From: Candidatus Aenigmatarchaeota archaeon
GTDB lineage: Archaea; Aenigmatarchaeota; Aenigmatarchaeia; CG10238-14; SpSt-28
Direction of reading: 5' to 3'
Assembly (NCBI GenBank): GCA_032249395.1
Contig: JAVVFY010000007.1
Coordinates: forward strand, 1 to 39,809
DNA: 39,809 nt
Shown piece after piece: positions 30,001 through 33,000 of the stretch; the stretch's first letter is position 1, and each line of letters starts with the position of its first letter. Position numbers: made by a program.

Positions 30001-33000
30001 GTAGCTAAGTTTTTTTGCTATCGGATTATCTATAAAACCGTATTCCTCTCCACATTCAGGATCGGGGCAATGACTCCTTTCTTCAATACTCCAAAAACCT
30101 TTTCCACAATTAGGACAAATTCTTCTTTTGAATCCTTCTTTTTCAAAGAGCTCCACTTCCCAATATTTTTTCGGTTCCTTCTGAAATATTTTTAAAATTT
30201 CTCCCTTTGTTACCATAGTTTATAATTGATTGCAAATTTTTTAATATTAGTTTTTCTTTTAAGTTTCATCAAAAAATGAAGGAAGTCAAGAAACTAGATG
30301 CAGAAATGCTAAAAAAGTGTTTTAGAATCAATAACTTGTAAGCGTGAGAAAAAAAGTTGAAATAAATAATTAAACCCTAGAATTCTAATGCGGTTAGTCT
30401 CCTTTTATCACAGCAATTGGTTTCAATCTAACAACTCTTTTCGCTAAACCCGCTTTCTCACAAACTTCAGCAACTTCATCAACTGGTTTGTATGCTTCTG
30501 GAGCTTCTTCAGCAACTCCTTTCCAACTCCATGCCTTAACTAAAATTCCTCTTTGTTGCAACTTTCTAGCTACTTCCTCCCCTCTAAATTCTCTTAACAT
30601 TTTTGCTCTAGAAGCTCTTCTTCCTGCTCCATGAGCTATAGAAGCAAAAGATTCTTCTTCAGCTTTCTTAGTTCCAATTAAAATATGGCTTGCATCACCC
30701 ATAGAACCAGGAATGAGTGATACCAACCCATATCTTCTATATTTTGCTGGTGTGCCAGGCCAATCAGGACCATAAGCTCTTGTAGCCCCTTTTCTATGAA
30801 CTAAAACTTTCATCTTCTTCCCATCTATTTCATGCTCTTCAAGCTTAGCCATGTTGTGGGTAATGTCATAAATTAAATTTAATCCTAAGCTTTCTGCATC
30901 TTTCTTAAAAACTTTTTCAAAACTTTCCCTAATCCAATGAGTTATCATTTGCCTGTTAGCAAAGGCAAAGTTTGCTGCAGCGTTCATAGCCCCAAAATAA
31001 TCATAAAAAGTTTTAGTACCGCTAGGAGCAAAAGCTAGTTGTCTATCTGGTAATTTCCTTAACCAATCTTTATGTTCTCTTTCCATAATTTGTAAGTAGT
31101 CTGTAGCTACCTGATGACCCAATCCTCTAGAACCGCAATGAACCATAACAGTAACTTGTCCTACTTGCTCTATTCCTAAAGCTTTGGCCACTTCAGGTAA
31201 ATATATTTTATCAACTACTTGAATTTCTAGAAAATGATTACCAGAACCCAAAGTTCCAAGCTGATCCTTTCCTCTATCAATAGCTTTTTTGGAAACTTTT
31301 TCTGGTTGGGCTAATTTTTCCTCGTTACCATTATCTTCCATATACTCTAGATCTTCTTCCCAACCATATCCATTTTCCACTGCCCATTTCGCTCCATATT
31401 TTAAAACATCGTGCATTTTCTCTGAAGCTAATTTTATTACTCCACCTTTGCCAACTCCAGCAGGAACTGCTCTAAAGATTTCATCAACCAACTGCTCTAA
31501 ATACGGCTTTATTTCCTCGTGAGTAAAGTTTGTCCTTAGTACTCTAACTCCGCAGTTTATATCGAAGCCTACTCCACCTGGCGATATTCCTCCTTCTTCA
31601 TAGCTAATTGCTGCTACTCCTCCTATAGGAAAACCGTAACCCCAATGCATATCTGGCATTGCTAAAGACCATTTCTGAATTCCGGGCAAAAATGCAACGT
31701 TTGCCACTTGTTCTATTGCTCCCTCTTCAACATCCTTAATCATTTCTTCTGACATGAATATTTTTCCAGGAACTCTCATTCCTGGTTTTGCATCTTTCGG
31801 CAATTCCCATTCATAGTCACTAATTTTCTTCAGTTTATCTTTCAAGCTAATTTTAACCACCCCAATTGAATTTTAACATTTTATTGGCGTGCAGAACTAG
31901 CTGCACGCACCGTTTCCGCAAATTTAGCAGCGGTGCGTGCCAACAAATTTTTCAGATACTTAACATTTGAAAAGTTGATTTAAAAGCTTTAAGTTTTGAT
32001 AAAGTTAAGAAAATAATCAAATTTATAGAGTTTAAAAAGAAATTAAAATAAGGTGGTTGAATGAGCAAAATTCTACCAATGTTGTTGATAACATTGCTAG
32101 TATTCTCGGTAACATCAGTTGCTCTTGTAAAAGCACAAACAAGTAACTCAGATATAGAAAAATTAGTATTCATTCATTACAAGAAAGGTTCAGGAAAACC
32201 ACCAGTAGAAGTTTTAAAATGCGAAGAACCAAACGCATTAGATATTGTTAAGGAATTGTATGCCAGCAGAGGAATAACTCTTCAAACAATGGCTAAGTTG
32301 AAAACACCAAAATGCTACACTTTCTTAACACCAACGAAGGTTAAGTGGAAGACATTACCAGTAAGTTATGTGATAAATCCAATCAATCCTCTACAGCAGT
32401 TAGATGAAAATCAACTCATTTCAGCAATATACAATGCAGCTGAAGAATGGGATTCTCATACAAGTGTTGAGTTAATGAATAACCAATATACTATAGATTA
32501 TTCAGCAGCTCCAGGAGTTCAAGATTATAGAAATGTGATTGGTTTTGGAAATTACAGCGATCCAAATGTTATAGCTGTAACAACAGTTTGGTATAGCAGA
32601 GTAACAAATCAAATAGTAGAGTTTGATATGATGCTTGATACAGATTGGATTTGGGGAGATGCAGTAGCTCAATGCAATTCAAACGAAACTTTCACAAATT
32701 CAACTTGCACAATTATGGACATTCAAAATATAGCAACCCATGAATTTGGACATGCAATTGGTCTAGGAGATATTTATGATTCAAGTTGTTCAGAAGTAAC
32801 AATGTATGGTTATTCAGATTATGGAGAAGTTAAAAAGAGAACTCTAGAACAACCAGATATAAGAGGACTACAAACTCTCTATGGAGCTTGAATCCTTTCT
32901 TCCTTTCTTTTTTAGTTGCAAGTTTTTAAAATGAATTTAGATTTCAAATAAGTTAAAAATGAAAAAGTAAAGGTGAATGTATCTCTTATCTTGTTATGCT

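Follow-up and report, generated by a model that had tools for sequence, protein, structure and literature searches.

The window, the whole 39,809-nt stretch of contig JAVVFY010000007.1 from a Candidatus Aenigmatarchaeota archaeon, carries on its minus strand the gene rtcB for a tRNA-splicing ligase (PF01139; 30394..31860; the listed GTG start gives 488 aa). By homology the start position falls on the AUU at 31851-31849, and the gene contains neither an intron nor an intein in this genome. A TATA-like box lies upstream at 31985-31978 and an SD at 31863-31857, and between the two, as a preliminary description of the locus had stated, sits a leader element at 31940-31887, again on the minus strand. 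The element is present in a single copy in the genome, which rules out a repeat or MITE. The TATA-like box stands 28-32 nt before the first stem of the element (P1) in 25 of 50 homologs, so that the transcript probably starts at P1; here the start would fall about 12-15 nt before it.

Minus-strand reading and folding of the window reproduced the geometry first described, with its stem, helix, loop and AAA bulge (all features below are on the minus strand). Stem P1, indicated by folding and covariation, pairs strand A (31940-31931), its 5' side and part of a short 5' exon, with strand B (31912-31903) over 10 bp. Next to it lie a central helix of 4 bp (31930-31927 with 31919-31916) that closes a 7-nt loop (31926-31920), together 31916..31930, and the 3-nt AAA bulge (31913..31915). 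The 5' cut is predicted between 31925 and 31924, by geometry as in two tRNAs of the genome, and the 3' cut between 31914 and 31913, which would define an intron of 11 nt (31914..31924). The second 3-nt bulge with an intron helix, as in the canonical hBHBh', is missing here, and the 7-nt loop corresponds to the relaxed bulge-helix-loop (BHL) form. Strand B also belongs to an alternative hairpin, P2 (31887..31908), which comprises strand B with a 2-nt toehold, a 6-nt loop and strand C, and largely excludes P1. P2 has 8 bp in this genome (31908-31901 with 31894-31887) versus 11-14 bp in most homologs. A third hairpin, P3 (31845..31902), is predicted by the folding model to bury the SD and the start region when P1 is formed; it was found in this genus and, as modelled, is no phylum-wide feature.

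The minus strand folded with z-scores of -3.5 to -5.1, and none of 200 shuffles was as good. The top rank claimed for the motif held in a scan that used other criteria than the one behind the 788 motifs counted earlier: among 1394 motifs of this geometry the element scored best, at -23.3 kcal/mol, ahead of a runner-up at -16.8 kcal/mol. The plus-strand reading was rejected, as it folds more poorly and lies upstream of a divergent gene's promoter. No Rfam family matched at the gathering threshold, and the four sub-threshold matches were chance ones. A tRNA mimic or split-tRNA piece was likewise discarded: the spliced copy would have a Ser-like 7-nt anticodon loop, but homologs do not keep it and vary in the would-be anticodon, ARAGORN finds no tRNA at the element, and an intact tRNA-Ser(GCU) lies elsewhere in the genome.

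In an unfitted alignment of 11 rows, 95.1% of 183 cells of P1 and the central helix were paired. With 32 rows the value was 95.5% of 536 cells, against 23-60% in slid controls, and double changes were found in 13 of 17 pairs and in 80 cells; all four pairs of the central helix covary. P2 was paired in 86.9% of 406 cells (slid controls, 26-65%), with double changes in 8 of 13 pairs and a nearly invariant tip. The reported overlap with a second conserved hairpin is thereby confirmed, as P2 shares strand B and covaries, and the covariation of both defines P1 and P2 as two conserved, mutually exclusive helices in homologs that are kin, not independent samples. The central helix has all four pairs here and in 43 of 50 parsed copies, the other 7 having three. 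The bulge is 3 nt long in all 50 (the parser required it) and, independently, in all 31 true rows of the model alignment, and its letters are AAA in 47 of the 50 copies, UAA in 2 and AGA in 1. The intron-like stretch between the fixed helix and the bulge ranges from 8 to 80 nt; the copy in G171 is a canonical BHB, and those in G237, G190 and G235 approach it. The exclusive pairing of the two helices and the near invariance of the P2 tip could also point to a transcription attenuator or a protein-binding hairpin pair in which cutting is incidental. We consider this very improbable, given that a helix of 4, a bulge of 3 and a free intron length are the rules of EndA, that RNA ends fall on the cut site (see below), and that no terminator-like site was found at the element.

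A covariance model placed one copy of the element immediately upstream of rtcB in each of 41 genomes, which span 11 families of Aenigmatarchaeota. There were 44 matches at E<=0.05, of which 41 lie directly before rtcB, one is separated from it by an endonuclease ORF and two are unlinked; among the 29 matches not first picked via rtcB, 26 lie directly before the gene, and none of seven weaker matches is linked to it. One junk row, a 15-bit match in L095, was included when model R2 was built. The presence stated for the genus was recovered in G000, G002, G004, G005 and G007, with none in G006. The element is indeed missing before rtcB in G015, as had been noted, but its supposed confinement to the genus did not stand, because it was found in ten further families. 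Matches occur in 29 of 118 genomes of the order and in 19 of 151 in the phylum; most genomes searched are without a match, so the element is dispensable. A pattern search of metagenomes placed 12 of 20 matches before rtcB, and a search of viral contigs gave none. A strict pattern run over 185,579 genomes returned 17 matches, namely 13 in named Aenigmatarchaeota, one in an unnamed archaeon, one on a contig in an Aminicenantia bin (possibly mis-binned) and two in bacteria without rtcB; this pattern misses the 10-bp form of the present genome and thus does not delimit the range outside the phylum.

The patchy presence amounts to at least 6-9 changes on the RtcB tree. Such a distribution could be left by a selfish BHB intron that once inserted into the leader and persists there as a neutral relic; coding introns come and go in rtcB, and in G061 a LAGLIDADG ORF lies directly behind a decayed copy of the element. 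Even so, we regard a relic as extremely unlikely: the exon strands and P2, which lie outside the intron, covary over RtcB proteins only 45-60% identical, and no intron-free version of the hairpin was seen among the homologs.

The host genome encodes an EndA of the epsilon2 type (4FZ2, E 3e-89), with the catalytic Tyr, His and Lys and the loop Lys aligned. Relaxed BHB and BHL tRNA introns are described as cut by (alpha-beta)2 and epsilon2 EndA (PMC5829648, PMC6379350). In this genome, tRNA-Arg(UCG) and tRNA-Glu(CUC) contain 11-nt introns with a geometry identical to that of the leader. Compared with BHL tRNA introns, the leader has no tRNA body, its exon helix is twice as long, and its 3' exon strand has an alternative partner. 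A tie of the element to the epsilon2 enzyme was unsupported, the enzyme being found in 8 of 42 carriers (the other 34 gave no match to this query) versus 11 of 37 other genomes; two carriers without it still have BHL tRNA introns (3 of 20 regions).

Circular rtcB RNAs, seen as back-joints, were found in three of four metatranscriptome runs of congeneric strains, and run X2 showed none among its listed contigs. The RNA contigs come from relatives and were matched at 85% likeness. The circle of run X5 starts at 31913 and ends at 31636, and the joints of runs X1 and X3 fit 31913 and 31566, the short side of the X1 joint being only 21 letters. The X3 contig of 352+30 nt is a closed circle, and a circle simulated from L106 or L111 reproduces the X1 joint together with its 9-letter loose end. 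In the RNA of these congeneric strains, the start at 31913 corresponds to a cut after the second bulge nucleotide. The 3' ends coincide with the sites of BHB introns in the coding sequence of relatives on the minus strand, after 31636 (G024, G044, G053, G113 and L109) for X5 and after 31566 (G024, G044, G113, L106, L109, L111 and L118) for X1 and X3; the coding introns of the X3 and X5 strains themselves were inferred from position. Altogether, 12 coding BHB introns were counted across 13 rtcB loci examined, only motif-anchored ones being included because the DNA-level insertion scan is noisy for distant sequences. Since the circles begin at the bulge cut and end at coding 5' splice sites, the leader is cut in vivo. 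Circles of relatives, 11-nt tRNA introns and covariation over 11 families thus bear out the proposal that the splicing endonuclease acts on the leader, and we are highly confident that it is an EndA substrate in vivo.

Other sources of the joints were considered. Template switching, suggested by a three-letter repeat at the X1/X3 joint, was rejected because the X5 joint lacks any repeat and both its ends lie on EndA sites. A long-range BHB between leader and coding sequence was also discarded, as no pairing was found by eye and the coding introns explain the circles instead. The circles were possibly joined during library preparation; their ends would still be EndA ends. At the DNA level, all 12 rtcB-linked contigs carry the intact leader and none the joined form. 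A linear spliced leader or an 11-nt deletion was not among the listed contigs of the four runs, and contigs drop rare forms. In X1 and X2, contig depth was higher over the circle region, and a contig of X1 stops at 31914; depth and contig ends cannot rank parts of the gene, so neither was counted as evidence.

The consequences of a cut were examined in folding models of 41 leaders. P1 was favoured in 32 uncut leaders and not favoured in 9, and P2 formed in 39 of the 41 cut 3' pieces. Strand C weakened the binding of the 5' exon, the median going from -16.8 to -3.9 kcal/mol; the change exceeded 3 kcal/mol in 40 of the 41 leaders. Compared with the spliced form, the cut piece saved more than 0.5 kcal/mol on opening the SD-start region in 31 of the 41 leaders at 37 C and in 32 at 60 C, and cost more in 2 and 1, respectively; the same comparison for a coding control window gave 12 versus 10 at 37 C and was skewed, 8 versus 1, at 60 C. 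The mean opening cost was predicted at 4.3 kcal/mol for uncut, 4.7 for spliced and 2.7 for cut leaders; splicing alone would not open the site, and the opening effect is modest (median, 1.2-1.5 kcal/mol). A shuffled 5' exon closed the SD equally (mean difference, 0.03 kcal/mol; 18 of 41), which gives no hint of a selected anti-SD; an anti-SD specific to the 5' exon was dropped as unsupported. In the present genome, P3 remains the top structure after release, the probability of P2 is 0.25 at 37 C, and the modelled opening cost falls only from 10.1 to 5.0.

We propose that the element is probably a regulatory switch on rtcB expression, a cis-acting RNA at the extreme 5' end of the message that recurs across the phylum, and the evidence favours cut-and-release by P2 over plain splicing as the operative step. 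As covariation shows, the new transcript folds P1, the 4-bp helix and the 3-nt bulge into an EndA site. EndA would then cut, leaving a 5'-OH at 31913; the bulge cut is read from the RNA of congeneric strains, and the loop cut is presumed. Two fates may then compete: RtcB rejoins the exons into an uncuttable hairpin, or strand C invades from the toehold, P2 forms and the 5' exon of about 20-30 nt is ejected. In the last and weakest step, the ribosome site would be less open while the 5' exon is attached, whether uncut or rejoined, and open once it is ejected. If the site opens only after exon release, scarce ligase would raise rtcB translation and plentiful ligase would lower it. On these models we lean slightly towards a negative feedback by ligase sensing, in which cut-and-release opens the ribosome site and religation by RtcB shuts it. 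The chances seem evenly balanced that the leader represents a ligation-sensor class of cis-regulatory RNA, with religation against strand displacement setting translation and giving homeostasis without a protein regulator. Ligase supply may thus be set by the speed at which RtcB repairs its own message.

Religation might instead be a negligible side path, with EndA and P2 giving a mature 5'-OH mRNA under a protective hairpin, a feed-forward processing that ties ligase supply to endonuclease activity without ligase sensing. It would agree with the lack of a rejoined leader among the listed contigs, with P2 reaching nearly to the cut end in many homologs, and with the fall of Haloferax HVO_1309 on EndA repression (PMC7714728). 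We hold it to be rather improbable, because the motif is restricted to the leader of rtcB or of its operon and is not seen before other genes, and because P1 of 10-11 bp holds the exons far better than the 1-2 bp at coding introns, which favours religation. That splicing is required, only the rejoined leader being translated or stable as with coding introns, HAC1 and XBP1, appears unlikely. In its favour, coding BHB introns that depend on RtcB occur in this very gene, and HVO_1309 offers a precedent (PMC7714728); however, no gain in openness over the uncut leader is predicted for the spliced one, ejection of the 5' exon by a conserved P2 would oppose splicing, and in G057, whose strand B stops 1 nt short of the AUG, splicing would leave the hairpin right next to the start codon. 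A HAC1/XBP1-type splicing was set aside on the same prediction and because the element lies upstream of the SD. Quite unlikely, too, is a cut that turns the gene off, in which P2 exposes the 5'-OH to decay or circularisation by RtcB and high EndA or RtcB destroys the message. Circles without most of the coding sequence are the sole processed form among the listed contigs, and a kinetic competition of ligation and decay is described for HAC1 (PMC6592678). Nevertheless, a coding intron is a prerequisite for circles and is missing from this genome and from most carriers, exon circles are reported as errors at cbf5 (PMC3326292), and in the models no other form is as open as the cut piece.

RNase III (rnc), RNase E (rne) and DGCR8-Drosha each close a feedback loop through their own leader mRNA as substrate. 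These systems sense a nuclease by destruction, whereas the rtcB leader would sense a ligase by the repair of a programmed cut. The closest precedent seen comes from Haloferax volcanii, where the 5' UTR of HVO_1309 contains a BHB intron (Schwarz et al. 2020, PMC7714728). EndA cuts this untranslated leader both in vivo and in vitro, and an influence on expression has been suggested. The intron is a 46-nt canonical BHB before a peptidase gene, whereas most copies of the rtcB leader are bulge-helix-loop and the target is the ligase; the accessible part of that report describes neither a competing hairpin nor a ligase link. The cbf5 pre-mRNA intron of Crenarchaeota (Yokobori et al. 2009, PMC2738675) shows tRNA-type mRNA splicing with patchy loss, and exon circles occur near its splice site (Danan et al. 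2012, PMC3326292). As a coding intron that needs removal, with no switch described, it is nearer to the rtcB coding introns of relatives than to the leader. HAC1 and XBP1 (PMC4687415, PMC6592678) resemble the leader in that an endonuclease and a tRNA ligase act on an mRNA, which refolds after the cut and faces competing fates. There, Ire1 cuts, the intron is ejected, the exons zip up and splicing activates; in the rtcB leader, the conserved refolding ejects an exon and the target is the ligase gene.

In the literature searched, only cbf5 and the HVO_1309 leader are named as EndA-cut archaeal mRNAs, neither with a known purpose. The rtcB leader adds a third kind, in which the substrate is the mRNA of the partner ligase, shows covariation over 11 families and, by the RNA of relatives, is cut. 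If the feedback is true, genome-reduced archaea with many tRNA introns would balance cutting and joining without a transcription factor, an archaeal counterpart of HAC1/XBP1-type control, and RNA-repair capacity would be kept in homeostasis across a DPANN phylum; the 55-nt module could then serve to report or control RtcB activity. In strains with a coding intron, the freed 5'-OH could instead be joined to the 5' splice site of that intron, the same ends yielding back-spliced exon circles of an archaeal mRNA as dead ends. Coding introns also render rtcB dependent on its own product, an effect opposite to negative feedback. In L138, the element heads an archease-rtcB operon.

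Folding of the minus strand ahead of rtcB (30394-31860, minus strand) produced a 10-bp stem, P1 (31940-31931 paired with 31912-31903), with a 4-bp helix and 7-nt loop between its strands and an AAA bulge at 31915-31913. A second hairpin, P2, overlaps the 3' strand of P1, and the fold claimed in the preliminary description (stem, AAA bulge, 4-bp helix, overlapping hairpin) was thereby borne out. None of 200 shuffles folded as well. The element is present as a single copy in this genome (753 kb, 89.5% complete), where it ranked first among 1394 motifs of this geometry, 6.5 kcal/mol ahead of the next, so that the earlier claim of a top score held in a separate scan. 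In two-bulge (BHB) splice motifs the cut falls after the second bulge base, and the predicted intron is therefore 31924-31914. An Rfam search returned no entry for the element.

The rtcB upstream regions of relatives, read directly, held 16 copies in three families, of which 11 were used to build a first covariance model. An unfitted alignment of 11 rows had 95.1% of 183 cells paired, with two-sided changes in 11 of 17 pairs. In the model-fitted alignment (32 rows, one of them junk), 95.5% of 536 cells were paired against 23-60% in slid controls, all four central-helix pairs covaried, and double changes were seen in 13 of 17 pairs and in 80 cells. The earlier reservation about few independent changes is outdated. 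P2 was paired in 86.9% of 406 cells (slid controls, 26-65%), and 8 of its 13 pairs covary. Since P2, with many G-U pairs, takes up nearly all of the 3' strand of P1 (strand B) in most homologs, P1 and P2 are mutually exclusive. Among 50 parsed copies the bulge is AAA in 47 and the intron spans 8-80 nt, long introns forming hairpins; the G171 copy has the canonical two-bulge form. Of the 50, 25 have a TATA-like box 28-32 nt ahead of P1, and their transcripts would therefore begin at P1; in this genus the distance is 41-47 nt. The leader element is real and conserved.

Eight metatranscriptome runs contain part of the locus, and the contigs of four were compared with it at 85% likeness. The RNA stems from related strains that diverge by 3-22% over the pieces. 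Back-joints were found in three of the four (X1, X3 and X5) and in no X2 contig. The X5 joint leads from 31913, the third bulge base, via four letters continuing the coding sequence, to 31636, directly after which relatives (G024, G044, G053, G113, L109) carry a BHB intron in rtcB. For X1 and X3 the reported joint connects 31917 with 31571, one letter standing between them. When the leader cut is joined in silico to the 31566 splice site in the sequence of L106 or L111, the resulting circle recovers both this joint and the 9-letter loose end that X1 shows. The X3 contig (382 nt, 30-nt terminal overlap) closes into a 352-nt circle. Introns directly after 31566 occur in G024, G044, G113, L106, L109, L111 and L118. 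These 17-26-nt BHB introns lie at two active-site motifs of rtcB (L022, L026, L021 and L089 from G024, G044, G053 and G113, plus L106, L109, L111 and L118); the 13 loci examined hold 12, of which 11 have the full 4-bp helix, with exon helices of 1-2 bp only. This genome has no coding intron.

Because the ends match the leader cut and the 5' splice sites of coding introns, both ends of both circles are sites of the tRNA-splicing endonuclease EndA. The ends were joined without loss or gain, as expected of the ligase RtcB. The joints could instead have formed during library preparation. Among the contigs listed from the four runs there was no linear spliced leader; the runs may come from two campaigns, and the leader was intact in all 12 rtcB-linked DNA contigs (from 20 pattern matches). 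Exon circles of cbf5 have been interpreted as ligase errors (PMC3326292). We conclude that the leader is cut in vivo in close relatives, as the proposal of a splicing-endonuclease substrate had it, and that by geometry and 3' cut it is a relaxed, one-bulge (BHL) motif with a predicted intron. Other probable rtcB inserts lie at nearby sites in L110, L064 (G103) and L079 (G093). In G006, G008, G011, G017, G043, G045, G048, G049, G058 and G059, rtcB has open frames of 770-1470 aa whose matches are split, in keeping with one or more inteins.

Relaxed motifs are reportedly cut only by (alpha-beta)2 and epsilon2 EndA (PMC5829648, PMC6379350). This genome encodes an epsilon2-type enzyme (G000:C3:59932-61131, L032; match 4FZ2, E 3e-89) and a single-unit alpha-type one (G000:C2:53500-54200, L031). 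Its tRNA-Arg(UCG) and tRNA-Glu(CUC) each contain an 11-nt intron that shares the 4-bp helix, 7-nt loop and 3-nt bulge of the leader; this shape is therefore one that the cell has to cut. In the phylum sample, epsilon2 EndA was found in 19 of 79 genomes, and its distribution (8 of 42 carriers vs 11 of 37 non-carriers) speaks against a tie to the leader element. A single alpha-type gene was found in five carriers without it, and loop-type tRNA introns occur in two of these (3 of 20 regions); the single alpha-type EndA of other families apparently handles such introns, which would be at odds with the published rule. Several tRNA genes of G051 (L149, L152, L156, L157, L159, L160) and G031 (L163, L167, L168) have short extra segments ahead of the anticodon stem, probably non-canonical introns.

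The first model matched 29 of 118 genomes of the order, one match per genome, and 19 of 151 in the phylum sample; a second gave further matches in 18 of 151 and 14 of 22 genomes, the latter searched to E 1. At E<=0.05, 41 of 44 distinct matches immediately precede rtcB (in two cases with a further 100-220 bases), as do 26 of the 29 not initially chosen via rtcB. G112 and G119 matches are unlinked, and none of seven weaker matches (E>0.05) was linked. In G061 (L083, 254-1453), a 399-aa LAGLIDADG ORF separates a decayed copy from rtcB, with archease upstream. Named carriers are Aenigmatarchaeota. Since the carriers represent 11 families and their RtcB identity goes down to 45%, the supposed absence from other genera was wrong. 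An RtcB tree of 53 rows, 36 of them carriers and with non-carriers under-sampled, places the element on either side of its deepest split and calls for 9 changes, strong branches forcing 6 of these; hence it would be either old and repeatedly lost or moved together with the gene. In L138 (1601-2122) it leads an operon of archease and rtcB; the contig was binned with a bacterium (Aminicenantia) and may be mis-binned or transferred.

Folding models covered 41 of the 50 parsed copies, leaving out six near-duplicates and three with unclear or distant starts (G057, G061, G112, G119 and G246 lie outside the set). P1 was favoured in 32 of 41 uncut leaders, and P2 formed in 39 of 41 cut 3' pieces. With strand C, the partner of strand B in P2, the cut-off 5' exon bound less tightly, the median at 37 C going from -16.8 to -3.9 kcal/mol (a loss of >3 kcal/mol in 40 of 41); from this we infer that P2 is built for exon ejection, with its invariant tip as toehold. 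The element behaves like an EndA intron coupled to a strand-displacement switch.

The mean modelled cost of opening the SD-start window was 4.3 kcal/mol uncut, 4.7 spliced and 2.7 cut. The cut form opened better than the spliced one in 31 of 41 and worse in 2, against 12 and 10 for a coding control window at 37 C (8 and 1 at 60 C). In G057, which lacks P2 and has strand B 1 nt ahead of AUG, the values were 6.3 against 0.9. One of 15 SD-led starts in this genome matches the uncut rtcB start. Shuffled 5' exons shut the window as well as real ones (18 of 41), and here the SD-burying hairpin P3 stays on top after exon release (opening, 10.1 to 5.0); for these reasons, the direction, in which cutting and release open translation, is only suggested. 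Rival readings are plain EndA-dependent maturation of the mRNA, a need for the spliced leader in expression, and cutting that turns the rtcB message off. We favour negative feedback of RtcB on its own mRNA: with low RtcB, the cut 5' exon would leave and translation would open; with ample RtcB, the exons would be resealed into a hairpin that cannot be recut. If this is true, the element is a new kind of regulator.

A full-text search of main texts, including few subscription journals, turned up no paper that describes a splice motif in the leader of rtcB or control of RtcB via its own mRNA; supplements, where motif or circRNA tables might bear, were outside its scope. The portions consulted of PMC4090602 and PMC6125680 held nothing further on either point. 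A 46-nt BHB intron in the leader of HVO_1309 was described by Schwarz et al. 2020 (PMC7714728), who mention cbf5 (PMC2738675) as the sole other mRNA case. The rtcB element is apparently undescribed so far; XBP1 and HAC1 splicing are functional parallels, not family.

The codon five bases past the SD (31851-31849, minus strand) is AUU here and AUG in many homologs; at this position 19 of 50 parsed copies have AUA, AUU or AUC and three GUU, suggesting non-AUG starts. Genome-wide, 4 of 22 such sites have codons of these types, and an in-frame GUG within the SD is an alternative start. Long leader introns (L099, L101, L103; G190, G235, G216) and tRNA introns of this genome have in common a 10-base U/A-rich stretch with UGA, hinting at a shared origin or a protein-binding motif. 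In L024 (G014), a genome without the element, an intron-bearing tRNA-Tyr gene stops about 35 bases ahead of the rtcB start. Two near-identical tRNA-Pro(UGG) genes (G000:C2:48314-48387 and 50607-50681), 2.3 kb apart, resemble a target duplicated by an integrating element.
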